From IMG/VR virus record IMGVR_UViG_3300037484_000445, positions 32,001-96,000 of that record: DNA of 64,000 nucleotides, one strand, 5' to 3'. The position numbers were made by a program, and so were the translations under genes. The DNA is from a virus (Duplodnaviria; Heunggongvirae; Uroviricota; Caudoviricetes). The notes under the pieces were generated by a model. The model had not been told where the DNA came from. It saw nothing but the letters and a program-made list of their open reading frames with translations, and searched no databases. Positions 32,625 through 60,283 of this stretch are shown here, one piece after another (the first letter of the stretch is position 1; every line of letters starts with the position of its first letter).

Positions 32625-34019
32625 TTGAGCACCAACACCGCACAAAGAAGGCTCATAGCCAGGTACCTCAACGCGAAACCCGTGGAGAACAAAATCGATC
32701 TTCACACAGAGTTTCCGATTGCTATGTTGCGTCTGGCGGGATCCGAACGAACCGCGGCCTTTCCTCCTTTTTCCAAGAATGGTCCCCCTGAACAACCAGT
32801 TGAAGGGGGCGGTACTTCAAAGCGAAACATTCCCAAGGATCACCCTTACGACCCACGATCCTTGAAGCCTATGGCCAAGTCGTTGTGGGCTGCGAGCGTG
32901 AGTTTAGGTCATGCCCTAACGGCTTATCGTCACTTGAGCCGCTTGAAGTCCGGTACCATCAGCCCCGATGGGATGCTTGGGGGGCGGGGTTACGTGATGG
33001 GTATAGCGGATATCCGCAAGAAGCTCTATGACGCTTGTGAAGCCCTAAGTGCCATCACGGATACCCTTCACGACGAGATCATGGCACCTCATTGGAAGCC
33101 TCGTTTAGCTCAATTGGATGCTGAAGAGGCCGAGGACGTCGAGAACTACGTTGAGGAATCCCAGGAAATATTAGCCAATCCTGAGGATGAGGCTGAAGAA
33201 GAGGCTGACGAGATCGAAAGTCACAAGCCCAAGGCAAAGGGCGCTGATGACGAAGATGAGAAGGACGAGGACGAAGGATCCTCGGAATTACCCGGTGGTG
33301 GAAGCCCACCTGAAGCGTCGGCACCCCAACCGATGACGCCCAAGATGGCTAATTCGGCGTGGCCTACAGGAGTGCTTCCTGGGGGCCCTAGAATTGTGCA
33401 TTTGGATCGTCAAGATCCAGACCCCAACCCTCCTGAGGCCTACCCTTCCGATGACTGGGGGACTCCAACGGAAAAAGAGTACCTGTACCCCACACCGTTT
33501 ATGGGTGTCACGGTGCAGGCTGAATCCGTTGTGCCCGACGCTACAACGGAAGACACACCCACGGAAGCTTGGGACTTTGGATTGGGCTACGGTGCTCACG
33601 GACAGGGTGCTGGCGGGTACGAGAACCCTTCGGACGAAGGTGTTGGCAACAAGGGTGTTTGGGGACCACACAGTGGTCTGCCTGGAACTCCCCCTATTTC
33701 TTCCGGGGATAGTACACCAGAACTAGATTACAAGACCAATGAACACTTGGCCCAAGGGCTTCTCCCGAATGACGGCCAACCCCCTGTAGCTCGGACGGAC
33801 TATTTCCGTGGGGATCGTGGAAATCTGATCAACACGCAATCCACTTTACCAGGAGAGTCGACGCCAAGCGGAGAGTTTGCTCCTAGCTTGATGAACACCG
33901 ACTTCACCTATGAGGACGTAGAAACCCCTTACGTCCGATATGACTACACCACTCACGATTACAGGAAAGACCCCCTTCATGCTTGGCCTCAAAAAGCTGA
34001 GCAGGACAAAGAGCCATGA
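32625..34019 (+). CDS. putative internal head protein (acidic, low complexity)
   Basis: 464 aa; RRLIARYLNA tag and RLAG, RTAA, KMAN, VQAE motifs between segments. Confidence 0.6.
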   Translation: MSTNTAQRRLIARYLNAKPVENKIDLHTEFPIAMLRLAGSERTAAFPPFSKNGPPEQPVEGGGTSKRNIPKDHPYDPRSLKPMAKSLWAASVSLGHALTAYRHLSRLKSGTISPDGMLGGRGYVMGIADIRKKLYDACEALSAITDTLHDEIMAPHWKPRLAQLDAEEAEDVENYVEESQEILANPEDEAEEEADEIESHKPKAKGADDEDEKDEDEGSSELPGGGSPPEASAPQPMTPKMANSAWPTGVLPGGPRIVHLDRQDPDPNPPEAYPSDDWGTPTEKEYLYPTPFMGVTVQAESVVPDATTEDTPTEAWDFGLGYGAHGQGAGGYENPSDEGVGNKGVWGPHSGLPGTPPISSGDSTPELDYKTNEHLAQGLLPNDGQPPVARTDYFRGDRGNLINTQSTLPGESTPSGEFAPSLMNTDFTYEDVETPYVRYDYTTHDYRKDPLHAWPQKAEQDKEP

Positions 34020-35983
34020 CTGAACTTGGAGACTTGACTAGCTTCTTCAAAGAGGGTTCAGCTGTTTCCAACCTCGATTGGTTGGACGTTGACGAGCAAG
34101 CCTATCGTGAGTTGGAGACGCTCCCGAAGCAGAACTTGGATATAGCTCCAGACCTTGAGGCTCTGTGGAGTCATCAAGATGGGTCTCCGTCCAAACTCGT
34201 TCCAAACACAGGTGCCCCAAGAACTATGGGGGATCTTTCTGAGGCTCACGGGCGACTGCGTTCGGTGCCTGAGGATTTGATCCGAACGGCTCGATTGGCC
34301 ATAATCCAAACGACGAACCCCCAAAAGATCAGTAACTTACTGAAGGTTCGTTATGACGGCGATACCCTGGCCGCGGCGAAAACAGCCTTAGGTCAGGTAT
34401 TTGCTGAGCGTGGTCTATTGGGCAGGCTCTATATTGCTGCCAGCGATTTCACCAATTGTCAGGCATCGGCGGACTTTGTTCGACGCTTTGCTTCCGAGGC
34501 TAAGTACGTTTTAGCCAAGCAAGCTTGCGGTGATTGTACCCGCAGACATGCCCAGGCTAATGGATCCAGTCATTGTAGTGTGTTTCACAAGGAAATACAG
34601 CTGGATGTTCCCTACTCAGAGGCTTTGGCTCGCGAAGTCGAAAAGCGAGAAGTTTCTAAGAGTAAGGCAATACAAGCCTCGAGTGCAGATCCTAAAGAGA
34701 GGATCCGTAATGCCTTCTTGGCAGAGGAGTTCGCAACCTCAGCTAGCTTCACAGGACGTACTCAGGTGGTTTCACCTCGAGTGGCCGTTGATACTAGTCA
34801 GGTTCTGATATCTGCCGAGAACCTGACCAAACAACGTAAGGCTAGCGAGCAAAAGGCCCTAGCTGAAGTCAAAGCTCGTCCAATTGTGGCCCTACTCCGT
34901 CGAGAGATGATCAAAGGTCGCTCCGCTGAAGAGTTGGTCAAGACCTTGAGGTTGGCATTCGATGTTAGGGACTTGGGTGAGACTCAAGCCGTGTGGGCTC
35001 CTTTGTTTAAGGAAGCTGGCCTCTATGGTGCAGTCTACATCACACAGGAATCCTTCGACGATTGCCGTGAAGGGGCTGACTTCACGAACAAGCATGCTTC
35101 CAAGGCTAGGGCCATTGTGGCCGGCAACAAATGCTCTAGTTGCTTCTTCCGTCAGGCAGCTCGTTGCATGATGTACGGCCGTAAGCTGATTGGTTCGGCT
35201 GAAGAGGTGCTCACAACCGAAACCGTTCAAGCCGTGATTGATGAAGGTCGTATCGCTGGTAAACTGCCCTACGACGCAGCTCAGAGGCATTGGGGGTCTA
35301 CTCCAGTAGAGGCTCTGAAAGCCCTTCACAAGGCAGCCTCGGCGCCCCTGGCTGGGACCGTCTTGGATGTCCGCGGTACCATTGAAAGAGCCTTCCATGG
35401 TGCCACCCGCGTCACTCAGACAGGTGAGCTCACGAAGCGCAACATTGTAAAGGCAACTTCGCGGTATCTGAATGAAGGTCTTTATGGAGAAGACCTCAAA
35501 CAGGTACTTCAGAGTAGCTTTGGCCCGAGGGATCTTCTGGCTGCAGCCCAAGAACTCAAGGTGGTTCTGGCTGAGCAAGGACTCCAAGGCATCAAGTACA
35601 TCGATCCGACAGTCTATGCCGATTACGGAAAGGGTTGTGCTGAAGCGTCTCGGCTTCATCGATCGCGATCTGCAGTTCGCTACGCAAAGGTGGGTCCCAG
35701 TTGTGGATCTTGTGTCCACCAATCTTGCCCAGGTACATGCTCGGTCCTCAACAAGCTGTTAGTCGTTGAGCCCCCCTATATTGACAAGTTGGCAGAACAG
35801 CAAGCCATCCTAGATTCAGGGCGTTCGACAGAGGTTACTTACGCCTCTTTGGTGAACAACGGTCTCACAACAATGCAGGAGTACCAGTTGCAGAACCAAG
35901 ACATGTCCTTGGATCTCAATCCTGTAATGGCTTCAGATGCCACTTGGGTTGAGTTTGGTGTGCAGCAGGAGCTCAAACTGTGA
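34016..35983 (+). CDS. head-module protein with three about 190-200 aa Cys-rich repeats
   Basis: Three copies of GLxGxxYI..C..CxxC..C starting near 34409, 35015 and 35576. Confidence 0.7.
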   Translation: MTELGDLTSFFKEGSAVSNLDWLDVDEQAYRELETLPKQNLDIAPDLEALWSHQDGSPSKLVPNTGAPRTMGDLSEAHGRLRSVPEDLIRTARLAIIQTTNPQKISNLLKVRYDGDTLAAAKTALGQVFAERGLLGRLYIAASDFTNCQASADFVRRFASEAKYVLAKQACGDCTRRHAQANGSSHCSVFHKEIQLDVPYSEALAREVEKREVSKSKAIQASSADPKERIRNAFLAEEFATSASFTGRTQVVSPRVAVDTSQVLISAENLTKQRKASEQKALAEVKARPIVALLRREMIKGRSAEELVKTLRLAFDVRDLGETQAVWAPLFKEAGLYGAVYITQESFDDCREGADFTNKHASKARAIVAGNKCSSCFFRQAARCMMYGRKLIGSAEEVLTTETVQAVIDEGRIAGKLPYDAAQRHWGSTPVEALKALHKAASAPLAGTVLDVRGTIERAFHGATRVTQTGELTKRNIVKATSRYLNEGLYGEDLKQVLQSSFGPRDLLAAAQELKVVLAEQGLQGIKYIDPTVYADYGKGCAEASRLHRSRSAVRYAKVGPSCGSCVHQSCPGTCSVLNKLLVVEPPYIDKLAEQQAILDSGRSTEVTYASLVNNGLTTMQEYQLQNQDMSLDLNPVMASDATWVEFGVQQELKL

Positions 35984-36471: not shown

Positions 36472-36472
36472 T

Positions 36473-37093: not shown

Positions 37094-37096
37094 TTT

Positions 37097-39088
37097 ATGG
37101 CCAAAACCAAAGGCCTGTCCAGCCTTGTTCGTCAGGTTGGGCAAAAGATCAGAAGCAACAGCGGGGGCGAGGTAGTCGGGTCTGATGGTCCGAAGATTTT
37201 CAATATTCTCGACTACATAGAACAGCCTTGGGGTCTCAACATGACCCTTTACCCAGCTCAGCGCTTCATTGTGAAGCTCTACTATGGGTTGGAGTTGGAC
37301 ACCACCTTACCTGAGGATCCCAATCAGCGGATCCAGGTGACGGATATGTTCAAGTCCGAGGTGAAGTACGAGTTCACCGAGGTGGAGTACCTTCATTACC
37401 TGTTCAATGAGGGTCGATGTAACATTGGTGCTCAGGACCATAGCCGACGAGAGTTGGTTATGCCCATCGGTCGCCGTGGCGGCAAGACTACTCTTTCAGG
37501 CATTTTTGCCAGTTATGAGATCTACCGCCTTCTCAACCTGTACAACCCACAGTCTTACTATGGGTTGCCGAATGGCAACCGTATTCAGATCATGTCGGTT
37601 GCAACAGGCAAAGAGCAGGCTGGTTTGCTCTTCAATGAAGTCACCTCGCATTTAGCCAAGTGCGAGTACTTTAGCCCTTTCATTGCGAACAACACCCTGT
37701 CGCATGTGAATTTTCGTACCCCCTACGACATTGAGAAGTTCGGGCCAGCCGCTCGACAAGAGAACGGCAAGTTCGTCAGCTTCAATGGTAAGGCCACTCT
37801 TCGCGTAACCTTCAATAGCTGCATAGCTAAGGGTCTTCGTGGTCACGGTAACATCGTGATCATTTTGGATGAGGTCGCTCACTTTCAGGACAAGGGCAAT
37901 AGTTCGGCTCAAGAGGTTTACAACGCTGTTACGCCGTCGTCAGCCGCCTTCTCCTACAAGGATCCTAAGACTCACCGTCCTGCCATCGATCGCGTAACGG
38001 GCAAAGAGGCAGAAGTCGAGAGTCGCATTATCTTGATTTCGTCCCCCTTAGGTCGTTCGGGGTTGTTTTACAACCGCTACGACTTAGCCATGAGAGGTGG
38101 CGAAGGGGCCGAGAACATTCTGGCTATTCAGGCACCTACTTGGGAGATCAATCCTACGGTTCCGGGGGCCTACTACAAGCAAAAGTACCATGAAAACCCA
38201 CCAGTTTTCATGGTTGAGCACGGGGCACAATTCAGCGACCAAACTCGAGGCTGGATTGAGCGTGAATCGGATCTCACAGCTTGTATTAGGTCTTCGTTGC
38301 GCCCCAAGAGAATGGCTGCCCCGCGGCAACCCCATCAAATGGGGATTGACGTTGGTTTGGTCCGTGGTGGCGACGGTACCACTGTAGCCATCACACACAC
38401 AGAGGAAGACCGGATAATTCTTGATTACCATGAGGGCTGGTACGCCGGCATCGATTGGCGTGTAACTAACCCTCACTTGGATGGGATTTTTTCGGTCGAT
38501 TATGCCCGTAGAATAGCCGACGTTGAACGCCTGGACTTTGACGAGATCGCCGAGTGGATCAAATCCCTTTGCCAGAAGTTCCACATTACGGCTGGGTTAT
38601 TTGACCGTTGGAACGGTATTCCGCTTGAACAAGCCCTACATAAGAAAGGCCTGAAGCAGTTCAAGTCAGAGTTCTTTCCGAGGGACACAACGAGCAAAAT
38701 CTACCAAACCGTCAAGATGACCATGTACGACCAGAAGTTGGTTCTCTATGACTACCCCTTACCTGAACGTGTCACAGAGGGATCTCGTCATTCCCCTCTG
38801 ATTGCAGAGCTATTGTCTCTGCAAGCCACCCAGGTTTCCAAGAACATGGTGGTCGTCGAAGCCCCGGAAAAATCAGGTAGTCACGACGATTTCAGCGATG
38901 CCTTGGTCCGGTCTGTCTGGCTTTCGACCGAAGTCATTATGAACCGCAAGCACACTTCTCACGGGAGTCCTTATCATCCGGTAATAGCATCATCTATGAG
39001 TCCTCAACGGTACCAACTGTCGCGAGCTCGACACCACGGTATAAGTGACCGTAGTTTGGTTGGTCGTAGCATTGTGAGGCCGAGGTAA
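37097..39088 (+). CDS. terL: terminase large subunit
   Basis: LYPAQ, IGRRGGKT Walker A, QA, IILDE Walker B, LISSP coupling motif, nuclease GID and HDDFSDA. Confidence 0.92.
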   Translation: MAKTKGLSSLVRQVGQKIRSNSGGEVVGSDGPKIFNILDYIEQPWGLNMTLYPAQRFIVKLYYGLELDTTLPEDPNQRIQVTDMFKSEVKYEFTEVEYLHYLFNEGRCNIGAQDHSRRELVMPIGRRGGKTTLSGIFASYEIYRLLNLYNPQSYYGLPNGNRIQIMSVATGKEQAGLLFNEVTSHLAKCEYFSPFIANNTLSHVNFRTPYDIEKFGPAARQENGKFVSFNGKATLRVTFNSCIAKGLRGHGNIVIILDEVAHFQDKGNSSAQEVYNAVTPSSAAFSYKDPKTHRPAIDRVTGKEAEVESRIILISSPLGRSGLFYNRYDLAMRGGEGAENILAIQAPTWEINPTVPGAYYKQKYHENPPVFMVEHGAQFSDQTRGWIERESDLTACIRSSLRPKRMAAPRQPHQMGIDVGLVRGGDGTTVAITHTEEDRIILDYHEGWYAGIDWRVTNPHLDGIFSVDYARRIADVERLDFDEIAEWIKSLCQKFHITAGLFDRWNGIPLEQALHKKGLKQFKSEFFPRDTTSKIYQTVKMTMYDQKLVLYDYPLPERVTEGSRHSPLIAELLSLQATQVSKNMVVVEAPEKSGSHDDFSDALVRSVWLSTEVIMNRKHTSHGSPYHPVIASSMSPQRYQLSRARHHGISDRSLVGRSIVRPR

Positions 39089-39090
39089 TT

Positions 39091-40371: not shown

Positions 40372-40895
40372 TGACTGAAATCATTCGAACCCGTAACTGT
40401 AACGTCTACTTCAAGGGTGACTCCACAACGGTCACCATTTCGGACGCTATGGTGGCTTCTGGCTGGGCTGGGGGTCAGGGGGTCCAATGGGTAGGGGCCG
40501 TTGGGGATGACCGCGTAGTAACCTATTCAAGTGGGTTGTACGGGGGTTTTCTCATTTGGGGCTCAGATGAGCCTGGTGATGACTTTGCGGCCATTACCCG
40601 GCAACAACCAGCCTATCGCTACGCCACCATGTGCTTTGGGGGGTCTCTACTGACAACCTCGACCTACGAGCGGTACACCTACGCTTCTCGAGTTGCGGGG
40701 GGTCCCCAGGTTCCGTTGACCTACAACATCAATGACCCACTGTACTTTTCATCTCGAGGTTTGTTCACCAACGAGGATGAATTGTCTCAACAAGTGCCTA
40801 TAAGCCTGTTGGCACCAGCATTCTTTGTGGGATTTGTGGCCCAAGTACCCAAGGCCTCTAACGATTATTGGTTGGGTGTTCAAACTAGTATGTGA
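40371..40895 (+). CDS. decoration/cement-like structural protein, paralog 3 of 3
   Basis: Same motifs as paralog 1; TAATG coupling. Confidence 0.7.
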   Translation: MTEIIRTRNCNVYFKGDSTTVTISDAMVASGWAGGQGVQWVGAVGDDRVVTYSSGLYGGFLIWGSDEPGDDFAAITRQQPAYRYATMCFGGSLLTTSTYERYTYASRVAGGPQVPLTYNINDPLYFSSRGLFTNEDELSQQVPISLLAPAFFVGFVAQVPKASNDYWLGVQTSM

Positions 40896-40911
40896 TAGTG
40901 TGAGTGAGCAT

Positions 40912-41385
40912 ATGCCAAGCCCCTCTACCCCAGAATCCTCAGCTGCCAAACGTGTCGAGCATGAGGCTGCTCTTGCCGAGCGTGAAGAACGTGAGGTTGA
41001 GGCGTTAATCCAGAAAGTTAGGGAAGCTAAGAGCGAAGCCATGGAAAAGCTCTTGGCTTTGGGCACTTGTGCAGATGCCTTACGCCAACATGGGCGCCGT
41101 AACCACACGGACATGTCCGGTGCCTTGATTATGTTTGCCACGGCCCACATGAGAATTGCGGGGGCCGCAATTCAAGGGATCCGTCGGACAGGCCCAGTTG
41201 ATCGTGTAGTTGATCGCGCCAAGTCTGAAAGGACTGAGGCCATCCGTTTCGAGGAAGAGCGTTTGGTGAGAGAAAATTCCCGCAAGGCTCGCGAGAAAGC
41301 TCAACGACAGGTCGATCGTCTAACCTTCCCTGTTGATAACGACGCTATCGATGAACTTTACGGGGAGGTAGATTCAGATGCCTAA
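40912..41385 (+). CDS. helical hypothetical protein
   Basis: Charged coiled-coil ORF overlapping the portal start; the ATG at 40912 avoids an upstream overlap. Confidence 0.6.
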   Translation: MPSPSTPESSAAKRVEHEAALAEREEREVEALIQKVREAKSEAMEKLLALGTCADALRQHGRRNHTDMSGALIMFATAHMRIAGAAIQGIRRTGPVDRVVDRAKSERTEAIRFEEERLVRENSRKAREKAQRQVDRLTFPVDNDAIDELYGEVDSDA

Positions 41386-43210
41386 TTACACGAACAGCCC
41401 AGTAGGGCCTCAATATATTGTACGTACTTCGCTACGTCAACATCGCCCCTATGTGGCCAGCAGTTTTTCGAGTCAACTGACTCCTAAAGAGCGTCTAGCC
41501 CGGCAGCAGCAAAAAGTCGCCAACGGGATGGGGACTGCGGGTGGATATGGAGTTGGTGGAGGATTTGGCGGCAGTAGTATCGGTATGGGTGGTGCTGGCA
41601 GCACGATCTTGAGTTCTCAGGGTAACTTCTTCAGTCCACAACTCTCGACTGACTTCCTCGAGTTACCTCAGAGCATTCGTGAGCGCCGAGAGATCTACAG
41701 GCACTTCTACAATTCCGATGAGTTGGTGGGTCAGGCTCTAGACATCCACACTGAGCTACCTCTTTCCAAAGTTCGGTTGGCAGCGCCTAAACCTAGACTA
41801 GCCCCTAAGGGTTTCAAAAGTCCCGAGGATTACGGTAAGTACATTCTCAGTCGATTCCAACGTATGTGTGATAGGGTTAAGCTATTTCAGCGCCTCATCA
41901 CCATGGTCCACCACTATTGGTTGGATGGGCTGGCCTGCATTTTTGCTGAGGATAGCGTAGTCGAGGTTCCTCCTGAAGTGGGTCACACTCGCCAGCGGGT
42001 AAAGCAAGCTGTCCTTAAGGAAGATGGTGTGCCTGTTGAAGAGGAAGTGGACATTTGGACTGAGGATGAGACTACTGAAGAGCGAGAATTTACGTACTAT
42101 CGTAAGCATTACCGTGGGTGGGAAAAGCTCATTGTCCTTCCGATCGATAGGGTCAAGATCACAACCTTCGATTACACAGACAAGTCTATTGTCGAGCTGA
42201 TTCCTTCGAACAGAGACCGAGTTCTCATCGATAAAGCTCGAACAGGTGATCCCGTAGCCCAGAAGTTGGTCCAAGAGATTCCCGATGAGGTTAGGGACCA
42301 TATCGAGAAGGGCCAAGCCATACCTTTGGGAACAGATCCCGAAGAAGGCTCTTTTGCCTACATCCTCACGGGTAGCAAAGATGCGGATTCTTCCTTGGGT
42401 CATTCGATCCTAGATCGGTGCCTAAGGACCTTGTATTACAGGGAAAAACTACGTCAAGCTCAGACGTCGATTGCTTCTCGGGCTATGACACCCAAGCGCA
42501 TTGTTTGGGCTGAAGGGCTTTCTGATGTGGACGTCGACATGCTCCGTGAGCAGGTAGATTTGTCCTTGGTTGACCCGGACTACTCTATCGTCACGAACTA
42601 TGAGGTTCATTGGGAGGAGATGGGTTCTAGGGACCGTTTGTTGGATCTCTCCACCGAGTATGAACAGACGGAACGGCGCCTTTTGGCAGGTCTTGGTGTG
42701 ACCGAGAGCCTTATGTCTGGGGAGTCTCTCTATTCGGGAGATCGCCTCAAGCTAGAGGTCATCAACCAACGATACTTACATCTTCGTGAGATCCTGCAGG
42801 AGTACGTCGAAGAAAGCCTATTCCGTCCAGTAGCTCAGCGTATGGGCTTCATCGAGGAGGATGAGTGGGGTCAGGAAGTCGTGTTGTTTCCACGGTTGAG
42901 TTTCACGCGGATGCCCCTACGTGACAGTCAGGACACGTTCGATGCTTTGATGAACCTGTATCAAAAGGGTTCGATATCTATCGATCTCATCCTCGAGTTA
43001 CTAAATATCGATCCCGATGACACACGGATGAAAATCGAACGTGACCTGTTCACGGTCAATGACGCCTTGTTCAACGAAATCCTTCGATCGCTTTACAACG
43101 AAGTGGGTCGTATGTTGGCCGAGAAGTCGGACGTTTTGGACCGTGTTGCCAAGTACATGCAGCTGAAGCTGAAACCTGAGGAGCCTGAAGAGGGGGCCAG
43201 TCGTTTCTAA
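41378..43210 (+). CDS. portal protein
   Basis: 610 aa between TerL and the protease; FY..D.LV..ALD.H.ELPLS, G.SIL.RC.R.L, LLAGLGV.ESL.SGE..YS, portal-like helical layout. Confidence 0.82.
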   Translation: MPNYTNSPVGPQYIVRTSLRQHRPYVASSFSSQLTPKERLARQQQKVANGMGTAGGYGVGGGFGGSSIGMGGAGSTILSSQGNFFSPQLSTDFLELPQSIRERREIYRHFYNSDELVGQALDIHTELPLSKVRLAAPKPRLAPKGFKSPEDYGKYILSRFQRMCDRVKLFQRLITMVHHYWLDGLACIFAEDSVVEVPPEVGHTRQRVKQAVLKEDGVPVEEEVDIWTEDETTEEREFTYYRKHYRGWEKLIVLPIDRVKITTFDYTDKSIVELIPSNRDRVLIDKARTGDPVAQKLVQEIPDEVRDHIEKGQAIPLGTDPEEGSFAYILTGSKDADSSLGHSILDRCLRTLYYREKLRQAQTSIASRAMTPKRIVWAEGLSDVDVDMLREQVDLSLVDPDYSIVTNYEVHWEEMGSRDRLLDLSTEYEQTERRLLAGLGVTESLMSGESLYSGDRLKLEVINQRYLHLREILQEYVEESLFRPVAQRMGFIEEDEWGQEVVLFPRLSFTRMPLRDSQDTFDALMNLYQKGSISIDLILELLNIDPDDTRMKIERDLFTVNDALFNEILRSLYNEVGRMLAEKSDVLDRVAKYMQLKLKPEEPEEGASRF

Positions 43211-43217
43211 CGGTCGC

Positions 43218-43242: not shown

Positions 43243-46200
43243 ATGCACCGTGAGGCCACAAAGACTGATCTGCAGAAGCAGGATGAGGAGTTTCAGCGCT
43301 TAGTAAGGCCTAGCCCTAAGCAAAAACCTCCTCGTCATGACCTGCGTCGTGAGCGGGTCGACCTTGAAAGTGATCCAGACAATGAGGATCCTTCAGACAA
43401 GAAGGATCGCAGTCGTAATTTCAAGGATATTGGTGGGTCTGTCATTGCTCGTCTGGTTCATCGAGCCCGGACTGAGCGAATTCCCGCTAGGAGCCGTGAA
43501 ACCGGCGATGTTGTTCAAATCTCACCGAAGACACTGAAGGAGCGCCCGGGTGAGTATGAGGTCGTTGAACCCGAAGAGGAAAGCTCAAAAACCGAAGGTA
43601 TTGAGCCTAAGGAAGAAGAACCTGAAGCGAAGCCCGAAGGTCCGACAGAGTCGTCGAAACGTACGAAGTTCTACCAAGATGCCGGGAACGCTCTACGTGA
43701 CTTAGCTCAAGGTGATCCTAAGCTCACAAATAAGTTGAAGGACTTTGGGCGTCCTGATTCACAGATTTCTGGTCTTGCCAAGGAGAATCCGGATTTTCCT
43801 GCAGCCAAGCTGTTTCCCGGCGTTACCCTACCTAAGGGTTTGAACACCCTGGGGGACATCAAGGAGGCTTTAGCTAACGCTGTGAAGCCTTCAAAGAAGA
43901 CGAAGGCACCATCCACGAAGCCTCCACCAGCTGAGGCTCCTCAAGAATCCCCAGGGGCAAAGGCCCAAACTGAAGAGCCCCCTTCAGCAACTGAAGAGCC
44001 CCCAGCAGCGCCTAAGAAGAAGGAACCACCTAAGCCCCCTAGCCCCAGAGCTCAGGCTCCACAGGAGGCGCCTGAGGCCAAAGAGCCACCCACTAAGGCC
44101 AAGGCTCCTAAGAGCAAGAAAGGGCCCGGGACCCCGCCTCAAAAGCCTGAGGCTAAGCCAGAAGCCCAGAAGCCCCAGCGTCCCAAAGAAGAGGGTGACC
44201 TTGAGTCTCCCAAGTCTGGGGTGGAGGTTCTTGATCACATCCCCACGAAGGCTGAGCTCTACCAAATCAAAAAGCCCCCGCGGCGCGAAGTTTCATCGGA
44301 CGAACGACAGGCAGCCCTGAGTCTTTTGATGGACACGTTTCCGCCGAACATTTCGTCGGAGCTCATAGCCAAGAACATTCACCCGGATGATGTGCGTGAA
44401 CTTGTTCGTAGTTACGGTGCTGCTAAGGCAGCGGGCCCAAAGAATCTGGATCGTCTAGTCTCCACGGTTTCTAAGGTTTACCAGACCGATCCCGATGAGG
44501 TTGATCCCCCTACCGAAGGGCTTAACGCTCAGGGTGCGACGGTTTCGTTTGACCAGTTAACCCCGGAAGAACAGGCGGAAGCTACCTTGAAGCATCAACT
44601 TCAAGTGTCGGCATTAAGCCTTGCGGCACACGATATTCTCACGGACAAATTGTCTCAAAAGGGCGCCATTTCTGGAAGGGCCCGTGTTCCCTCGAGTTTG
44701 GCTTCGACTCTGGCCGATAACATCCTCAGACCGCCGGATCCGAGCAATGTCGCAGCCATAGCATCGGAGACGTTCAAGGCTGCTCTTGAAGGGGGCGGCG
44801 GTTCTCTGAGTCCTAAATCAGCTAAGGCTCTGTTAACACGAATCTCTAAGTACCCTGGCGCAAAAGAGATCGCCACAGCCTACATGCAGGCTGCCGATTA
44901 CACTCAAGCTAAGACCGAATTCCTAGATAGCGCTGAGATTAGTGAATGGGATAGGCCAGGCAAGATCGTCAAAGGCCTAGGTAAAGCCGAGGAGTTCTTC
45001 CGTAAGCGCAATGCTGAGTACGGCACTTCTGGAGAGCATCCGGCGGCACGGATGTTTAGACAGCGAGTTGTTAACCGTTTGAATGCCCTTGATCCTACTA
45101 AGGCTAAGGCTGTTAGAGGTCGTTTGGCAGAACTCGAGAAGTCCGAATACGCCGACCAGGTGAAGGACTGGCACGAGGCTATGAAAGAGTACTTGGAGCG
45201 TAAGAAAGAACACGCCCAAGCCCATGCTGAGTACCTTTCGAACCCCCAAGGCAAGTCGCCTCCGGGTCCGTTTTTGGATGTTGCGCCCACAGAGCCAGCC
45301 AAACCGGCCCACAGTTTCGACAAAGAGGAAGGTTCCAAGTTGTGGAGTGACCTAAGGGAGCCTTCAAAGAAACCGAAGCCTGCCAAACCGGCTACTCCAA
45401 AGACGCCTGAATCCACGGAAACTCCCGAGCAAATTGCTGCTGTTGCAGATGAAGCCTGGGACAAAGCCCAACAGGAACAGGGGAAGACCGCTTCAGCGGT
45501 TGATAGATTCACTTATTCATTACGTTCTGTGATGGCCCCCTCTGCCAAGACCAGTGTGTATCACGGGATTGATCCAAAAACGAACCGTCCAAAAGCCTAT
45601 GAGGGTTGGAGTCAGTTCCACCAGCGGGATTTTGGGGAAAAGGACGTTCAGGCTATCTTGGCTTCGGCTCAGGATTGGCTTAAGTCTCCCTTACTGACGG
45701 TGGCTGTGAATGAGATGGTGCCAGACGCCAAACTTAGGGCGGCTTTGGACTTGGCCATCTACACAGGTCCTTACAATGGGGCCATACCTGCCAAGACTTA
45801 TGATGAACTGTTGGCTAAGTTTGCTGGCGTCAAAGAGCCCGGCCGTGGCGAAACTCTCCTGACAAAAACAGCTGATTTCAAGACGGAAAACGTCTTTCTT
45901 GCTGTTTATGGCCCGACGCCAATTGATGAACGTGTACTGAAGGCTCTCGAAGGCCCTAAGTTCACCTTCATAGACGCTTCGGGGACTGTGTTTGAGGACG
46001 GCACTATCGAGCCTCGTCTCGTACGACAAGGTTCTGTGGGTGCTGGACCAGGGTATGTGGGTGAAACCCTTGTGAGGATCAATTTCCCAGAGGGATCATC
46101 GGATGCTGCCCTCAAAATAGCCACTGGTGTTTTGGGATCCTTGAGGCTTAGGGCTGAAAAAGTTACTGCGTCGTACACACCTTCGTCGAGGGCGGCAGAC

Positions 46201-49230: not shown

Positions 49231-49252
49231 CTCTTTATAGATACACACTTGA
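49231..49252 (+). promoter_or_regulatory. CTTTAT-N10-TTGA putative late promoter of the scaffold-decoration-MCP operon
   Basis: CTCTTTATAGATACACACTTGA. Confidence 0.45.
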
Positions 49253-49272
49253 GTAGAAAGGGTGATCCCGTC

Positions 49273-50577
49273 ATGCGTGAGAGAACCACTTGGAACCGTA
49301 ACACCATTTGTCGGTTGGCCAGCGCTCTTAGGACCGCTGAAGACCCGACCGCAATGAATCAAGATCACATCAAGCAGCAGCCAGCTGCTGACAAGTACGT
49401 AACGGGCGACCCTTCCTCTTTCGCCGAGGATGTCCATCCCTCTACCGGTACTTGGAAGGCCGAATACTCAGGTGATGAGGTCAAGCGCAATGAGATCGGG
49501 TTGCCCGAAATGCGTGGCGACACCTTCAATCACAAGGAAAAGACGGCTGCCGACGACGATGACGATGATGACGGGGATGACGACGAATTCCTCGAGAAAA
49601 AGGCTGAGGTTTGCCTTGGTCTAGCTCGACGAGTTCTCGCCAAGACCGCTTCGGAATCAGTCGTCGAAGACCAAGCTTTCGCCTTCATGCACCTCCCTGA
49701 CGCAGCTTTGATCGAGACTGTGAATCGTCTGGCCTCACAGGAAGAGGATGACGACAAGGATCAGCAGCAGAAGCAAGGCGGTAAGATCCCACCCCAGTTC
49801 CTCGAGAACATCCAGAAGAAGAAGGATGAGGCCAAGGACGACAAAGGTGAGGACAAGGGCCAACAGCAGAAGGAAGCCCAAGGTCAGCAACAGCAGGACG
49901 ACGGCGATAAGGGCCAGCAACAGCAGAAGCAGGCCCAGGGCCAGCAACAGCAGGACGAGGACAAGGGCCAACAGCAGAAGGAAGCTCAAGGCCAACAGCA
50001 ACAGCAGGACGAGGGCCAGCAGCAGAAGCAAGCCCAACAGGATCAGATCTCTCAGTTGCAACAGCAGGCTCAGCAACTCCAGGATCAAATCGCCCAACTG
50101 GTTCAACAGTCTCAGTTGCAACAGCAACAGTCCCAGCTGCAACAGCAGCAGGGCCAATTGCAGGGCCAACCAGCTCCTGTTATGAGTGACGACCAGATGT
50201 TGGACCAATTGATCCAACAGCAGACGATCCCACAGCAGCAACAGTTCACAGCTAGTGAGTCTTTCGATATTCAACTCGAAGGACCCTCGATTGACACTGG
50301 TGTGCATCTGGGCAGCGAAGACGAGGCCCTTAGTGCCATCTTTGCCAGCCACTCTGAGGTTCGTGAAGCTGCACAAGCTCAAGCTCTCCAAACGGGTATC
50401 CCCGTTCAGGCGAGTATAGGAATGACCCGTACGGCATCGACTCGCACTGTTGGTACTCGTCCGAGTGCCGGCGTTTCGCAACTCGGTGGCAACACCAGTT
50501 CTGGATCACGAAGTGAAGTCGACAAGCTAGCCGGGCTTTGGCAGTCAGCTCCGGATGTGTCGAGTGTGTTCGACTGA
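49273..50577 (+). CDS. capsid scaffold protein with poly-Q/acidic repeats
   Basis: Lies between protease and decoration/MCP; low complexity with a coiled coil and many K/R-x-A motifs; ATG at 49273. Confidence 0.72.
   Translation: MRERTTWNRNTICRLASALRTAEDPTAMNQDHIKQQPAADKYVTGDPSSFAEDVHPSTGTWKAEYSGDEVKRNEIGLPEMRGDTFNHKEKTAADDDDDDDGDDDEFLEKKAEVCLGLARRVLAKTASESVVEDQAFAFMHLPDAALIETVNRLASQEEDDDKDQQQKQGGKIPPQFLENIQKKKDEAKDDKGEDKGQQQKEAQGQQQQDDGDKGQQQQKQAQGQQQQDEDKGQQQKEAQGQQQQQDEGQQQKQAQQDQISQLQQQAQQLQDQIAQLVQQSQLQQQQSQLQQQQGQLQGQPAPVMSDDQMLDQLIQQQTIPQQQQFTASESFDIQLEGPSIDTGVHLGSEDEALSAIFASHSEVREAAQAQALQTGIPVQASIGMTRTASTRTVGTRPSAGVSQLGGNTSSGSRSEVDKLAGLWQSAPDVSSVFD
49849..50040 (+). repeat. about 4 tandem copies of a roughly 50-nt coding repeat (DKGQQQK[E/Q]AQGQQQQD)
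   Basis: GAGGACAAGGGCCAACAGCAGAAGGAAGC recurs exactly; CAG/CAA-rich tract continues to about 50245. Confidence 0.85.
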
Positions 50578-51346: not shown

Positions 51347-52225
51347 ATGCACCAAGTTTCAAATGAACTGAAGCAACAGATCATCAGTGAGTACGTCAAG
51401 ACCGCCGCTGGTCGTGCCAAGCTCGCTGCTTCGATGGTTCAACCGCTCCGCATGCGTCGTGATTACACGGCGGTAGGTCGTAAGACCTTCTTGGTGGAGC
51501 AGCTTCCGGATGGGGCACTGCCCATCTACGATAAGGATCCCGACGTGTCAGCCTTTGTGGTTGGCGAAGAGGGTCAGAACATCCTTGCCATCCAGAAGCC
51601 ACGTAGGGTCATCTTCCCGTTGTTCGAGATCGCCTCGAACCCCGAGATCCCCCTCACGCAGATCAAGGAGCGTCGTTTCGACCTCATCGAACGTAGCCAG
51701 GACCTTGCAAAGGCCCAGATTCAGGCTGCCGAAGATGAGCGTGTGTTTGCAGTTCTCGACTCGATCGCGATGTCGGGCTTCGACACTCTCCCTGGTCAGC
51801 TGAACCCCGACGTCGCCGTCGTAGCTCCGATCAGCCCATCAGTCCTCGCGGACGCCTTTGCTGAGATCGAGCGTCACGACTTGCGTGTTGCCCGTATCTA
51901 CATGAATGCCGTCGACTACGCCGACATTCGTAAGTTCGGTCGCGACATTCTCGACATCGAGAGCCAGGCCACGTTGCTGAAGACCGGTCTTCAGGCAACC
52001 CTCTGGGGCGCCCAAATCATCACGAGCCGTCTGGTCCCAGCCGGTTACGTGTACGTTTGCGGCGAGCCGGAGAACTTCGGTCGTATGCCGGTTCGTACGG
52101 AACTCACGGTTCTGTCCGCGGACGACCCGAAGGCTCGTACGATAGGATTTTCTTGCTTTGAAAACCTGGGTATTGGGGCGTTCAACCCCCGTGCTCAGAC
52201 CCGTCTGGTTGTCACTCGCGTGTAA
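51347..52225 (+). CDS. major capsid protein (HK97 fold)
   Basis: 292 aa after protease/scaffold/decoration; R..LA.SM.QPLR...DY..VGRK, spine helix AKAQIQAAED, LWGA.I..SR.VP.G; followed by a strong hairpin. Confidence 0.88.
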   Translation: MHQVSNELKQQIISEYVKTAAGRAKLAASMVQPLRMRRDYTAVGRKTFLVEQLPDGALPIYDKDPDVSAFVVGEEGQNILAIQKPRRVIFPLFEIASNPEIPLTQIKERRFDLIERSQDLAKAQIQAAEDERVFAVLDSIAMSGFDTLPGQLNPDVAVVAPISPSVLADAFAEIERHDLRVARIYMNAVDYADIRKFGRDILDIESQATLLKTGLQATLWGAQIITSRLVPAGYVYVCGEPENFGRMPVRTELTVLSADDPKARTIGFSCFENLGIGAFNPRAQTRLVVTRV

Positions 52226-53607: not shown

Positions 53608-53609
53608 TA

Positions 53610-55845: not shown

Positions 55846-55869
55846 GTCGACTTCAAGCGTAGAACCCTT

Positions 55870-55887
55870 GGTGTACTACGCTGTATG
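55870..55887 (+). promoter_or_regulatory. GGTGTA-N9-ATG putative leaderless promoter of the methyltransferase
   Basis: GGTGTACTACGCTGT-ATG. Confidence 0.55.
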
Positions 55888-56922
55888 CCTTCGCCTAGCA
55901 CGGTTGGTCGAGGAAAAAAGGTAACCCTTTACGATCCTGGTTCTCGCATCAGCCACACAGATAACAGGGTGTCCCTGCATTTAGGGGACGCCCTGGATTT
56001 CTATGATCGTTGGGCGACCCCTACGGCTATCATTTCGGATGGAGCCTATGGTATCCTGGGTTTTGAGGGGGACACCTCGAGTTCTCAAGGGTTGGTCGAT
56101 TGGTATGAACCCCACGTACAGTGGTGGTCAAAGCGAGCGACTCCAAACACTACCTTGTGGTTCTGGAACTCCGAGATTGGGTGGGCTGCGACGCACGATC
56201 TCCTTGAGAGGTATGGCTGGCGCTACATCAATGCCAACATCTGGGACAAGGGAATTGGACATGTGGCCGGAAACGTTAACACGCAAAAGATTCGACGCTT
56301 TCCGGTGGTTACAGAGGTTTGTGTACAATACGTCTTCGAAGCTTCGGTTCGTGGGACGCCCTTGAAGCGTTGGCTTCGAGATGAATGGGTTCGGGCGGGG
56401 TTGGCTCTCAAGCGAGCCAATGAAGCTTGTGGGGTAAAGGATGCCGCGGTCAGGAAATACTTGGACCAAGGGCACCTTTGGTACATGCCGCCGACAGAGG
56501 CCATGATGAAGCTCAGTGCCTACGCCAATTACTACGGGGATGACCTAGGCAAGCCTTACTACTCCTTGGATCGTATCAAACCCGTCACAGAGGCCCAGTG
56601 GACGCGAATGAGGGCCAAGTTTCAGTGCCCTCATGGAGTGACCAACTGCTGGCATCGCCCGACCCTAAGGGGTGTCGAGAGGGTTAAGATCGAAGGTAAG
56701 CCAATTCATTTGAACCAGAAGCCGTTGGACCTAATGGCCCTGATCATCAACGCTTCTACGGATGTGAAGGACGTGGTGTGGGAGCCTTTTGGGGGACTTT
56801 TTAGTGGGTGCCTTGCCGCTGCCCAGTTGGGTCGTAAGGGCTTGGGTACGGAAATTGACCCAACTTACTTTGAGTTCGGGTGCCGGCGCTGTGAGTCCGA
56901 GCTCCCTAGATTACCCCTCTAG
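55885..56922 (+). CDS. beta-class N4-C/N6-A DNA methyltransferase (orphan)
   Basis: GDAL, motif IV variant SDGAYG, IWDKG, H.NQKP..L, motif I WEPFGG..SG, GR...G.EID. Confidence 0.85.
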   Translation: MPSPSTVGRGKKVTLYDPGSRISHTDNRVSLHLGDALDFYDRWATPTAIISDGAYGILGFEGDTSSSQGLVDWYEPHVQWWSKRATPNTTLWFWNSEIGWAATHDLLERYGWRYINANIWDKGIGHVAGNVNTQKIRRFPVVTEVCVQYVFEASVRGTPLKRWLRDEWVRAGLALKRANEACGVKDAAVRKYLDQGHLWYMPPTEAMMKLSAYANYYGDDLGKPYYSLDRIKPVTEAQWTRMRAKFQCPHGVTNCWHRPTLRGVERVKIEGKPIHLNQKPLDLMALIINASTDVKDVVWEPFGGLFSGCLAAAQLGRKGLGTEIDPTYFEFGCRRCESELPRLPL

Positions 56923-56960
56923 TCTACTTATGGGCCTTCTTCGAGTGAACCTCGGAGAAA

Positions 56961-59102
56961 TTGGCCCCTATGTCCGGACAAGATAGCGGTAGCCCTCAAA
57001 CCCCAAAAACGGCCGGGGCGACACTCTACCTTATGGAAGAACTTGGGGACGCCCGGTTGAGGTGTGACCAGCTCACTCGGTACATTGCCGAGGCAGTCAA
57101 GCTCATCAACAAGTCCGATCATAGGGATCACTTCTTTGAAGTGGCAGGACATCTGCTTCAAGGGATCCCTGAGACGGCCTTTAAGCTTCAAAAAGCTCTT
57201 CAGGCGGTAGCCCTTGCTGCAGACCGCATTGACTACGAGGAGCTCAAGCTTGAGTTGCGCCCTGAAAAGGTCGAAGAGCTAGAAAAGGTCCTCAAAGAGG
57301 TTAGGATTCATCAGGTCCAACATCGTTCGGAGACTCCCATGACGCCAAAGCAAGTAGCCACACAGTTACGAACTCTCGCCAAGACTGCCCGTGAAGAAGG
57401 CTGTCTTCCCATTCACGAAATTGCCGCCCTTGTGGGTAAACTTGATACTAACCGTGTGGCTGGGGCGCCCGTATCGGCTGCTGATGCTTTGGACAAAATC
57501 GCTGAGTCTTTGGAGACTGCTAAGGACAAGCCCAGTCGCATTCAGTTAGCTAACCTGCTTTCTAGGGTGGCTATGGAGTCCGACTTCGACGAACTGGTAC
57601 GTCTCTCCAGCAAGGGTCTGATGAGTCAATTGGACCAGCTCTCAAGCGTCGAAGAGGTCAAAGAAAAGTTCAAGGCCGAGAACCCGAACATCTCGGACGC
57701 CGACTTAGATGAGATTGCCAAGCAGTGGAAGGCTAACAAGGACGTCGTCAAGGACAAGCATTCGGCATCATTTTTGACGCCGAAGGAAACCCTGACCCTA
57801 AACTTTGATGAGATCAAAGTTCTAGCCCTCAAGGCTTTGCAGGCGGCGAAGAGTGAGCGTTGGAAGCCTGCTTTACACAGTATCTACTTCTTGGTCGATA
57901 CTATCGGGACTCTTCTGGTTAACATGGGTTCTATGGACACGGTCAAGGTGGAAGCTTTGAAGCGGGAGATACGAGAACTTCTCCCAAGAGCTGAGGAGAG
58001 CGTTTCAAACATGCAAGTAGCACCTGCTGTTGTGACGGCTTCGACTGATAAGCTTGAACGTCTCGTTTCGAATATCGAGGAACAAGCTAAGGAGATGCGT
58101 CATGCTTTGGATACGTACAATAGGGATCCGGGTAGGTATGCTCCACAACTAAAGAATCTCAGGGATGCTGGATGGTCTATCGCTACATCCCTTCGAGTGT
58201 TGGACCGTGTTCTACCTGATATGATGAAGATGGCTTCGGACAAGGATCCAGTCATTTTCATCGCTCGAAATACCCTTGCAGAGCTAACCACACAACTAGA
58301 ACACGACCTCAAGGGTGATAAGGATTGGCACGATAATATTGTCGATGCTGCCGAAAGAACCTTGAAGGCCAATGTCCTTCAAGAGCGAGCCAACAATCTT
58401 CTGCAGAGAGTCGCGGCTTCTATTCTTTGGCTGTACACAGATGACGATGGTAAGGACTTTTACCTGTCCACCAGACGCCGCGGTACCATTCGATCGCCCT
58501 ACACTGGTAAGGCTTTTACGGCCGACGCTAAGAGGGCCACCATGGGAGAAGTTGGCAAGGAGCTCAAGGAGGATGAAGTCAAGATTAAGGGTTCCTTGTG
58601 GAAGTACGTTGACGGAGATGACAACGAATTTTACCTTCCTGAGCGCCTCACAACGACTTTACGGTCTCCAACCACAGGCAAGACTTTCAAGCCCAAGGCT
58701 GAGCGATTCACGTTGAGTGAAGTCGGTAAGAATCTCCGAGAAGAGGGTAAGAAGGCATCATCTGAAGATGACGCCAAGCGTTCTCGTTTCGAGGAAGGAA
58801 AGCCAGCGGATCCCACAGAAAACATGGATCCTGAGGACGCCAAGAAGTGGAAGTCCAATACGGACGAGTACGGTGACAAGTTCAAGAGCGCCGCTAAGGG
58901 TGATCCCTACTGGATGAAGGCAAAAAACCCCGGAAAAGCTCAAGACGGGACGCCTTTTAAGAAGGGTGAGGACATCTTCTACTACCCACGCACTAAGACC
59001 ATCCTCGTTGGAGATAAGGCCGATAAGGCCTCACGTGAGTTTGACTCAGCCGCTGACGATGAACGAACAGCCTCCGCAGACATCTTGGCCTGGAAAGCCT
59101 AA
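56961..59102 (+). CDS. modular putative internal head polyprotein
   Basis: 713 aa of short modules separated by KTAG, KTAR, RVAG, HSAS, VTAS, KMAS, RVAA, KKAS, KSAA, RTAS; internal 50-aa duplication. Confidence 0.7.
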   Translation: MAPMSGQDSGSPQTPKTAGATLYLMEELGDARLRCDQLTRYIAEAVKLINKSDHRDHFFEVAGHLLQGIPETAFKLQKALQAVALAADRIDYEELKLELRPEKVEELEKVLKEVRIHQVQHRSETPMTPKQVATQLRTLAKTAREEGCLPIHEIAALVGKLDTNRVAGAPVSAADALDKIAESLETAKDKPSRIQLANLLSRVAMESDFDELVRLSSKGLMSQLDQLSSVEEVKEKFKAENPNISDADLDEIAKQWKANKDVVKDKHSASFLTPKETLTLNFDEIKVLALKALQAAKSERWKPALHSIYFLVDTIGTLLVNMGSMDTVKVEALKREIRELLPRAEESVSNMQVAPAVVTASTDKLERLVSNIEEQAKEMRHALDTYNRDPGRYAPQLKNLRDAGWSIATSLRVLDRVLPDMMKMASDKDPVIFIARNTLAELTTQLEHDLKGDKDWHDNIVDAAERTLKANVLQERANNLLQRVAASILWLYTDDDGKDFYLSTRRRGTIRSPYTGKAFTADAKRATMGEVGKELKEDEVKIKGSLWKYVDGDDNEFYLPERLTTTLRSPTTGKTFKPKAERFTLSEVGKNLREEGKKASSEDDAKRSRFEEGKPADPTENMDPEDAKKWKSNTDEYGDKFKSAAKGDPYWMKAKNPGKAQDGTPFKKGEDIFYYPRTKTILVGDKADKASREFDSAADDERTASADILAWKA

Positions 59103-60283
59103 TGGGTTCACCTCTTGTATCCCGTCCGCCCTATGGAGAGGGCACCGCGAGGACCCCTAGGGCTGTGGCCGAACTACCCTCTGGGGGTCCTACGGATAAG
59201 GGTATACCTCTTGACTCGGGGATCCCGGGGGCAGCCACGTACTCCAAGCCTGAGGATGATATTCGCAGGCCCCAAATCACGGACACGTCCCCCAGGCGTA
59301 TTGACGGCCCGGATGACATGTTGAAGGACCGTGATCGTATTGAGGTACGAGAGGACAGTGCGGACTCGAGTACGAGCTACAACGGTTTGGGTAAACCAGA
59401 TCCCCCAAACAAGACCAAGTACCCCTACCGGGATGAGATTCCTAATGCACACAATGCCGCTTTTTTGGCTGAGCTGTGGAAGTTGGAGGGATCTCGAGTA
59501 GCCGTAATCAACGGTTCGATCCAGGTCAAGATAGCCTCCAATGTTGAAGAGATCTTGACGGGTCTCGATCAGAAGTTTCAGGAACGAGCCAAGAAATGCT
59601 CAGCTCAAGTCAAGCGTGCTGACATCAAGAATCTTCGTTGGATTTTCAGTGTGGATTGTGGACATGGCCCTAAGGCGGTCAAGGTTCGAGCCATTCCGAA
59701 GGGGCGTAGCAAGAAGTTCTCAACTCTTGATTTGGAGCTTTCCTGTTCGTGTCCTGCCTGGCAATGGTTAGGACCTGAGTTCCACGCCAAGAGCGAGAAG
59801 TTCATGCTGAAGCCTCAAAATGGCACAGCCTCGACTCCCGATATCCGGGATCCTGAACGGGATAATCGCGTCTGTAAACATGTGGCAGCAGCTTTAGCTA
59901 TCACTAAGCATTGGGAGATCCCCAAGGTCAAAATGCAGAAGGCCGTGAAGAAGGCCATGCGAGTACGTAGGGCTGTGCGGGCTGCTATGGATAGGCGTGC
60001 CATTCAGCTTCTTTGGGCCACTGAAGCCCTCAATCCCGACAATTGGCAGGAGGGGCTCAGGATGGATTGGGCCACGCCAGATGGGCTAGTAACGGCCTAC
60101 ATTCGGGCCCGGGGTGATGTGGCGGATTACGCAGAATTTCAATTCCGGAGAGAGGGTACTTCGTGGCCTAAACTCTGGAACAAGACTCGCGACCTAGTTG
60201 GAGCCTTAGGTCGTTTAGGTGTTACCCAAAAGTGGGCTTCTGTGCCACCTAAGGTGCAAATCTGGCTCCAAGAGAAAATGTAA
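59102..60283 (+). CDS. SWIM zinc-finger protein
   Basis: SCSCPAW ... VCKH (CxC-xn-CxH) after a disordered N-terminus ending in KIAS. Confidence 0.7.
   Translation: MGSPLVSRPPYGEGTARTPRAVAELPSGGPTDKGIPLDSGIPGAATYSKPEDDIRRPQITDTSPRRIDGPDDMLKDRDRIEVREDSADSSTSYNGLGKPDPPNKTKYPYRDEIPNAHNAAFLAELWKLEGSRVAVINGSIQVKIASNVEEILTGLDQKFQERAKKCSAQVKRADIKNLRWIFSVDCGHGPKAVKVRAIPKGRSKKFSTLDLELSCSCPAWQWLGPEFHAKSEKFMLKPQNGTASTPDIRDPERDNRVCKHVAAALAITKHWEIPKVKMQKAVKKAMRVRRAVRAAMDRRAIQLLWATEALNPDNWQEGLRMDWATPDGLVTAYIRARGDVADYAEFQFRREGTSWPKLWNKTRDLVGALGRLGVTQKWASVPPKVQIWLQEKM

Follow-up and report, generated by a model that had tools for sequence, protein, structure and literature searches.

In a relative of Bacillus phage G with a genome of 452 kb, the internal and scaffold-type head proteins carry many copies of a short linear motif, [K/R]-x-A-[S>A], which is probably the signal by which the phage's own prohead (capsid maturation) protease recognizes and cuts internal head proteins, the cutting itself being the step that we infer. 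The DNA analysed, here called the window, is a stretch of 64,000 nucleotides that comprises bases 32001–96000 of a single contig of 451,925 bp (IMG/VR record IMGVR_UViG_3300037484_000445) and holds the head module of this phage, with all main genes on the + strand. The simplest and most likely reading is a clade-wide cleavage code with a basic residue at P3, Ala at P1 and Ser or Ala at P1'. Sequence statistics from the window, from related loci and from independent lineages support the view that the motif is a selected linear signal linked to phages that carry this protease clade.

Motif enrichment in the head module

The first 31 kb of the window encode replication and metabolism proteins, and the head module starts at about 32.6 kb. 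Motif counts in the 25 open reading frames (ORFs, named here by their first position) between 32625 and 60283, the late set, were compared with expectations from residue shuffles inside 15- or 30-residue blocks, whole-protein shuffles also being run; the 26 upstream replication and metabolism ORFs formed the control set. With block shuffles, the late ORFs hold 23 copies of [KR].AS (a dot stands for any residue) against 7.3–7.4 expected (z 5.7–5.9), 40 of [KR].A[SA] against 18.5–19.0 (z 4.8–5.1) and 58 of [KRV].A[SA] against 27–28 (z 5.6–5.7). Eight permuted residue orders gave no enrichment in the same ORFs (z −1.75 to +2.5), and [KR].AS is not enriched in the control set (10 observed, 6.6 expected, z 1.3). 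Half of the Ala-Ser dipeptides of the late set (41 of 81) have R, K, I or V at P3. Over the whole genome, [KR].AS is found 23 times in the head module against 7.0 expected (3.3-fold) and 89 times in the remaining 543 ORFs (129,898 residues) against 73.3 (1.2-fold), and the scaffold-like protein is the top-ranked ORF of the genome for the motif, with six [KR].A[SA] sites where 0.6 are expected. When 13,746 short patterns in the window were ranked without bias, R.AS came sixth, and I.AS, KTA, R.A and AS were also among the top 25.

These results bear on a preliminary description of the DNA, which had proposed an Ala-specific cleavage code. Every tetrapeptide that it listed was found in the ORF named, and the comparison with replication ORFs and shuffled controls, set beforehand, returned an excess in the late ORFs only. 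One alternative that it had put up against the proposal, cutting after Glu, found no echo in the window, where neither [LI].E nor [AGS].E is enriched by the shuffle test. Its statement that the motifs occur in nearly every head-module protein was too broad, the excess being limited to about eight protein families, and the loose variants KEAQ/KQAQ, KTAD and the KTAA/KLAA of the capsid protein are individually unsupported. It had also placed the motifs at boundaries between folded and low-complexity segments. The window sites do favour segments poor in order-promoting residues (p 9e-4), and the boundary placement agrees with the linker site of the protease and with ORF 56961, in which seven of the nine listed sites (residues 16, 165, 267, 358, 423, 642 and 702) lie in, or no more than two residues from, linkers with a low predicted local distance difference test score (pLDDT; rough binomial estimate about 0.01, from a weak AlphaFold2 model of mean pLDDT 61), but a crude order/disorder proxy computed from sequence gave no special left/right contrast at the window sites (p 0.21).

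The motif in related phages

Approximately 80 syntenic loci of uncultured related phages were collected from two viral-contig scans (contigs up to 437 kb), and the ORFs of the relatives were grouped by similarity to the window ORFs, each group being dereplicated below 70% identity. The families of the scaffold, the protease and ORFs 56961, 46962, 43243, 46555, 34016 and 40825 contain [KR].AS in excess (Table 1), and the homologue of ORF 34016 in the metagenomic phage LR745208 holds 10 copies against 1.9 expected. Across the same loci there is no family-wide excess in the large terminase (TerL), the portal, the capsid protein, the three 172–174-residue paralogues or the decoration-like proteins; the shell and packaging proteins lack the signal. 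Permuted orders produced at most scattered excesses in the families, chiefly with small counts. In the logo of the scaffold homologues, P5 is Leu, P4 Val, P3 Lys or Arg (6–7-fold), P2 Thr (6.7-fold), P1 Ala and P1' Ser (4.3-fold), Ala and Asn being the next most favoured residues at P1'.

The excess recurs in lineages whose substrate proteins cannot be aligned with those of the window. Counts of [KR].A[SA] are 24 against 8.6 expected in phage G, 26 against 10.0 in Tunturi_5, 49 against 22.2 in LR745208 and 23 against 9.9 in mycobacteriophage Catera, where most copies read R-x-A-A; in Rhodococcus phage E3, [KR].AS is found 11 times against 4.0 expected. A control set of T4 proteins (gp67, gp68, gp21, gp22, gp23 and gp24) recovered the known gp21 motif, with 46 copies of [LI].E against 24.0 expected and 24 of [LIV].E[AGS] against 7.0, and showed no K-x-A excess ([KR].A[SA], 3 against 4.4). 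The excess tracks the protease clade across widely differing hosts, which include Bacillus, Acidobacteria and Actinobacteria.

The prohead protease

The protease gene lies between the portal gene and the scaffold and capsid genes (portal 41378, protease 47699, scaffold 49249, capsid protein 51347). A search of representatives clustered at 50% identity gave 1227 homologues of the protein (E<1e-3), and its relatives are the same set as those of the capsid protein. In the AlphaFold2 model (mean pLDDT 80), the protease domain is followed by disordered stretches (residues 273–299 and 301–335) and a helical C-terminal domain (residues 338–509). In this model, the domain has the assemblin/gp21 fold: aligned with VIA-align, it scores Z 11.4 with the protease of varicella-zoster virus (VZV), 10.9 with that of pseudorabies virus (PRV) and 10.3 with T4 gp21, against at most 7.1 for unrelated folds (MCE/MlaD), and its top Foldseek matches are herpesvirus proteases and gp21. 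Among 74 intein-free homologues, H54, S60, E124, H125, S176-M-G, C186, C189 and C200 are invariant and H227 is nearly so; His125 and Ser176, 51 residues apart, are likely to be the catalytic pair. The corresponding residues of T4 gp21, H85 and S140, are 55 apart (PMC12991175). Herpesvirus enzymes have a second His as third catalytic residue, a role for which H54 and H227 may be candidates.

A comparison with PDB chains gave no sequence match at E≤1, and as a sequence family the protease falls outside S21 and S77, in a clade of its own (phrog_18299/phrog_2774). A C-x2-C...C-x-[CH] cluster resembling a zinc ribbon is conserved clade-wide in the protease domain, the form C-x2-C...C-x-H being found in phage G gp19, Catera gp94 and E3 gp77; we know of no such cluster in T4 gp21 or herpesvirus proteases.

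The head genes of relatives hold intein-like insertions. At one locus (L006), the protease gene (8432–11266) has Hint and LAGLIDADG domains inserted before a conserved D-S-W and the portal gene (37–3342) has a LAGLIDADG domain, and the TerL gene of another (L004, 1394–4708) matches Intein_splicing at 3.5e-16. Many protease representatives are 900–1960 residues long, with 2–5 matched stretches each. The protease, TerL and portal of the window are free of such insertions.

Candidate cleavage sites

Within the protease, the candidate self-release site K286-A287-A288 lies directly after the protease domain in a linker of pLDDT<50. The columns of this site read [KR]-x-A in 67 of 75 homologues, with P3 occupied by Lys in 53 and Arg in 18 and P1 by Ala in 70; P1' varies (Ser 38, Arg 9, Ala 8), and the flanking columns are nearly unconserved, the top residue reaching frequencies of 0.03–0.29. 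In most homologues, the N-terminal 50 residues contain L-[VI]-x-Q-A-S and [VI]-R-[TV]-A-S, and phage G gp19 and Tunturi_5 gp331 have KTAA at the N-terminal position and KVAS/KIAS after the domain. At the position of R383-E-A-S386, close relatives show [RHK]-[EQ]-A-[SVT].

The scaffold-like protein is the main predicted substrate, with five sites that are kept to different degrees among homologues. The most constant, R394-T-A-S, precedes a conserved 46-residue C-terminal tail that ends in L-W-x-S-A-P-D-V. Positional conservation, a check that the preliminary description had called for, is strong at R394-T-A-S (56 of 61 homologues) and at the self-release site, weak at R383-E-A-S (6 of 39) and lacking at the site of ORF 46555 (0 of 15).

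Among the other marked proteins, ORF 43243 has C-terminal sites (residues 1012–1073) that are kept in 5–15 of 32–36 homologues. In ORF 46962, R-Y-A-S at residue 130 is kept in 13 of 22 homologues, and a further copy near residue 90 is flanked by conserved blocks on both sides. ORF 56961 and its homologues have, towards the C terminus, a tandem repeat with a unit of approximately 45–50 residues (F-E-x-G-K-x-x-D-P-T ... W-K ... F-K-x-A; window positions 58749–58895), the copy number of which differs among relatives of 330 to 918 residues. KTAA and KLAA at residues 18 and 25 of the capsid protein were rejected as cleavage sites: only near relatives keep them, phage G and the actinophages having neither. 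At residues 23–27 (41444–41458), the portal protein reads P-Y-V-A-S, an element that most relatives keep as P-[YHS]-[VIA]-A-x although the sequence around it varies. It may be a variant of the site in which P3 is aromatic or hydrophobic, a feature of the herpesvirus R site.

A probable course of events can be drawn from these sites. The protease would read [K/R]-x-A-[S>A] in flexible segments, P2 often being Thr and P4 and P5 Val or Leu, and the cut would fall between Ala and the next Ser or Ala (marked by a slash in the sites that follow). Self-release of the protease at K286-A-A/R289, and probably also near residue 37, would come first. The scaffold would then be dismantled at four or five sites, the cut at R394-T-A/S detaching the conserved C-terminal tail, and the internal head proteins encoded by ORFs 43243, 56961 and 34016, and probably 46962 and 46555, would finally be cut into modules.

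Comparison with known maturation proteases

Herpesvirus assemblin cuts (V/L)-x-A/S at its R and M sites. Members of this family (MEROPS S21) are the best structural matches of the phage domain (Z 11.4–8.4), among them the enzymes of VZV (1vzv), PRV (4v08), herpes simplex virus 2 (1at3), human cytomegalovirus, Kaposi's sarcoma-associated herpesvirus and Epstein–Barr virus. The proposed phage site shares with theirs the small P1 Ala and the P1' Ser, and its location, where the protease domain ends and again close to the C terminus of the scaffold (46 residues), recalls the R and M sites. In the actinophage relatives, protease and scaffold are fused, as in herpesvirus pUL26; the fusion proteins are Catera gp94 (L086:7342–11451; 1369 residues) and E3 gp77 (L087:7866–10553; 895 residues). 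There are also differences from assemblin: P3 is basic in the phage and Val or Leu in herpesviruses, the phage sites number dozens and are spread over several proteins where assemblin has two, and the phage protease domain contains the inserted Cys cluster, has no Pfam S21 match and is encoded separately from the scaffold.

T4 gp21 (MEROPS S77, PDB 5jbl) resembles the protease in fold (Z 10.3, root-mean-square deviation 2.4 over 124 residues), in the order of the catalytic His and Ser and in their similar spacing, and in the use of one short motif on the scaffold, the internal proteins and the protease itself. The T4 substrates are (L/I)-x-E, however, with Glu at P1 where the window sites would have Ala, and in T4 the capsid and vertex proteins are trimmed too, whereas the capsid protein of the window lacks a leader. 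Among giant phages, phiKZ gp175 and SPN3US gp245 likewise process many internal head proteins at one short motif, S/A/G-x-E (PMC13282480, PMC10052503), the only one cited in a 2026 jumbo-phage review, but these enzymes cut after Glu and belong to a different protein lineage. None of the 227 phage records matched by the window protease is phiKZ-like.

True homologues of the protease domain are phage G gp19 and Tunturi_5 gp331 (33–39% identity) and actinophage Catera/Bxz1 gp94 and E3 gp77 (28–32% identity). As in the window, the motif stands at matching places in these proteins and is in excess in their neighbours; unlike in the window, where the 509-residue protease has its own helical C-terminal domain, the actinophage protease is fused to the scaffold and R-x-A-A is preferred. 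No cleavage specificity was found in the literature for the proteases of phage G, Tunturi_5, Catera/Bxz1 or E3, nor any report of the present specificity in that on phage G, cluster C phages, phage I3 or Arash.

Interpretation of the motif

Several observations weigh against reading the motif as a cleavage code. The Ala/Ser scissile bond is one that we infer from the A/S cut of herpesviruses and from the P3/P1 logic of gp21. No cleavage product is known for this phage and none was found in the literature on its relatives, papers on phage G and Arash giving protein lists without cleavage termini. No Pfam peptidase family matches the protease (E≤0.01), and its sequence similarity to gp21 is negligible (hhalign profile comparison, probability 0.4). 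Some conserved copies of the motif probably have a structural role, namely R-Y-A-S and K-T-A-[AT]-Y-W in ORF 46962, I-E-A-S in the protease core and those in the N-terminal arm of the capsid protein. In the window alone, the motif is coherent but borderline after correction across all short patterns, and the case therefore rests on the relatives; because homologues are statistically non-independent and the family z-scores are inflated by common descent, the lineages with unalignable substrate proteins were tested as well. The assemblin-like enzyme of the preliminary description, with Ala at P1 and a basic P3, thus stands as regards the fold, the invariant Ser and His and the selected motif, the cut after Ala being argued by analogy. 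Its further claim that the enzyme processes most of the head proteome was overstated, since TerL, the portal, the capsid protein, the 172–174-residue paralogues and ORFs 50658, 52274, 59102 and 60286 are without excess.

Binding and cutting are indistinguishable from enrichment alone, and the confinement of the motif to flexible segments of internal and scaffold-type proteins would also suit a non-proteolytic linear signal, for example a tag for docking or packaging to the procapsid interior or the scaffold. We consider this unlikely: a docking tag should not be repeated many times in one protein, stand at each linker of a modular one or, in 67 of 75 homologues, mark the exact end of the protease domain, and the T4 control demonstrates that a true cleavage motif yields such a signal. 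The form of this idea in which the Ser is modified, as in a phosphorylation-type R-x-x-S site, is ruled out because the actinophage copies are mostly R-x-A-A; the Ala at −1 is, moreover, the most invariant residue. If the motif is a protease signal, enrichment still fixes only the constrained positions (K/R, A and S) and not the bond that is cut, and the variable P1' of the self-release site leaves room for a cut elsewhere in the motif, such as after Lys or Arg or one residue further on; the HK97 maturation cut is Lys/Ser. A displaced cut of this kind is nevertheless very unlikely, as cleavage after K/R would put the strongest constraints (Ala in 70 of 75, then Ser) at P2' and P3', which is unusual for the fold, whereas an A/S cut yields constrained P3, P1 and P1', in line with gp21, constrained at P3 and P1, and assemblin, constrained at P3, P1 and P1'.

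A different enzyme could also cut at the motif, for example a host peptidase of the Ala-x-Ala type or a second phage protease encoded elsewhere in the genome, and small residues at P1 are a common preference among peptidases. That the excess follows the protease clade over such different hosts, marks the protease's own linker and peaks in the genes flanking the protease makes this highly improbable. There remains the suspicion that the pattern is a functionless product of composition, helical periodicity or shared ancestry, fed by the choice of the motif after the sequence had been seen, by the position of R.AS near the multiple-testing limit in the window and by the common descent of the homologues. 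We find it scarcely credible, given that the pattern is repeated in five lineages without alignable substrates, is absent from T4 and forms islands of conservation within variable linkers; composition and periodicity in particular are ruled out by the whole-protein and local shuffles, which the excess survives, and by the eight permuted orders, which show none. Recognition and cutting by the prohead protease remains the explanation that we prefer.

Table 1. Features of the window and [KR].AS counts in the corresponding protein families (observed vs expected; families dereplicated below 70% identity)
Feature	Position	Strand	Evidence or remark	[KR].AS in family
Large terminase (TerL)	37097–39088	+		3 vs 8.2
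Portal	41378–43210	+		9 vs 6.6
Prohead (capsid maturation) serine protease, 509 aa	47699–49228	+	phrog_18299 head maturation protease, 8e-10	54 vs 24.6
Protease N-terminal candidate site K33-R-A-A-A-S38	47795–47812	+	pLDDT <50 at 20–32, confidence rising from K33–S38	
Protease domain, aa 45–265, assemblin/T4 gp21 fold	47831–48493	+	pLDDT >90	
His125, candidate catalytic His	48071–48073	+	Invariant in 74 homologues; 51 residues before Ser176	
Ser176 (Ser of MSMG), candidate nucleophile	48224–48226	+	S176, M177 and G178 invariant in 74 homologues	
Cys cluster C186-x2-C189...C200-x-C202, zinc-ribbon-like, inserted in protease domain	48254–48304	+	C186, C189 and C200 invariant	
Candidate self-release site K286-A287-A288/R289, directly after protease domain	48554–48565	+	Disordered stretch 273–335	
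R383-E-A-S386, start of C-terminal helical domain	48845–48856	+	Weakly conserved, 6/39	
Scaffold-like protein, 442 aa, acidic, Gln-rich; main predicted substrate	49249–50577	+		197 vs 18.6 (62 homologues)
Scaffold site R22-L-A-S	49312–49323	+	Kept in 24/50 homologues	
Scaffold site K98-T-A-A, directly before poly-Asp run	49540–49551	+	Kept in 15/17 homologues	
Scaffold site K132-T-A-S	49642–49653	+	Kept in 32/62 homologues	
Scaffold site R160-L-A-S, ahead of acidic/Gln-rich region	49726–49737	+	Kept in 22/62 homologues	
Scaffold site R394-T-A-S, 46 aa from C terminus	50428–50439	+	Kept in 56/61 homologues	
713-aa protein, helical modules and flexible linkers; predicted multi-site substrate	56961–59102	+		61 vs 13.4
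Predicted substrate of 1093 aa, encoded between portal and protease	43243–46524	+		70 vs 37.0 (41 homologues)
238-aa protein; predicted substrate, or motif copies conserved for structure	46962–47678	+		34 vs 5.4
130-aa protein; family with motif excess	46555–46947	+	Window site positionally unconserved, 0/15	19 vs 6.2
655-aa protein	34016–35983	+	Five motif copies in window	9 vs 1.9 (5 homologues only)
186-aa protein upstream of portal; family excess	40825–41385	+	Window copy without motif	8 vs 2.6 (15 homologues)
Major capsid protein; probably not a substrate	51347–52225	+	phrog_2522 at 1e-50	0 vs 1.1
ORFs 39335, 39853 and 40371				0–1 observed
ORF 50658				1 vs 2.8
ORF 52274				0 vs 1.1
ORF 59102	59102–60283			4 vs 4.3
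ORF 60286				0 vs 1.8

Genome context

The affinity of the phage is seen in its capsid protein, which is 82% identical to that of LR745208 (485 kb), 49% to that of Tunturiibacter phage Tunturi_5 and 39% to Bacillus phage G gp27, with remoter matches in cluster C mycobacteriophages. The early genes encode, among others, a ribonucleotide reductase, an NAD-dependent ligase, a RecD2-like helicase, RecA, a clamp-loader subunit, a KOW/5'-nuclease fusion and a GroEL-like chaperonin, the gene of which is at the very start of the window (359–1972; Cpn60_TCP1, 1.6e-69). The early ORF set (1–31343) is rich in TDQ (20 observed, 1.7 expected) and DQV (19 observed, 2.5 expected), an excess that is probably located in ORF 2008–5274, a protein of 1088 residues without a Pfam match, and that suggests a repeated domain. 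Within the head module, a DNA methyltransferase gene is found at 55885–56922 (phrog_67, 7.7e-21), and ORF 59102–60283 has a borderline match to the SWIM zinc-finger.

Significance

The specificity of prohead proteases is known for few phages, and the giant-phage and T4-type enzymes that have been checked cut after Glu. We lean towards the view that in a very large clade of large phages from soils, waters and actinobacterial hosts (over 1200 protease representatives when clustered at 50%), to which phage G and the cluster C mycobacteriophages belong, the protease departs from all characterised phage proteases of the gp21 type in cutting at Ala/Ser, as herpesviruses do. In that case, capsid-internal and possibly injected cargo could be read from sequence by its [K/R]-x-A-[S/A] tag, and the small-P1 specificity would point to an old trait common to the phage and herpesvirus branches. 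A Lys/Arg-x-Ala/Ser rule would strengthen the functional link between the two in capsid maturation, would predict the mature virion proteins and packaged cargo of thousands of uncultured large phages, and would guide mass-spectrometry searches, as default settings miss non-tryptic termini. Recent work shows that cleavage by prohead proteases is sensed by bacterial CBASS (cyclic-oligonucleotide-based antiphage signalling system) immunity (PMC12991175), so the defences that a phage triggers may also depend on the specificity of its protease.

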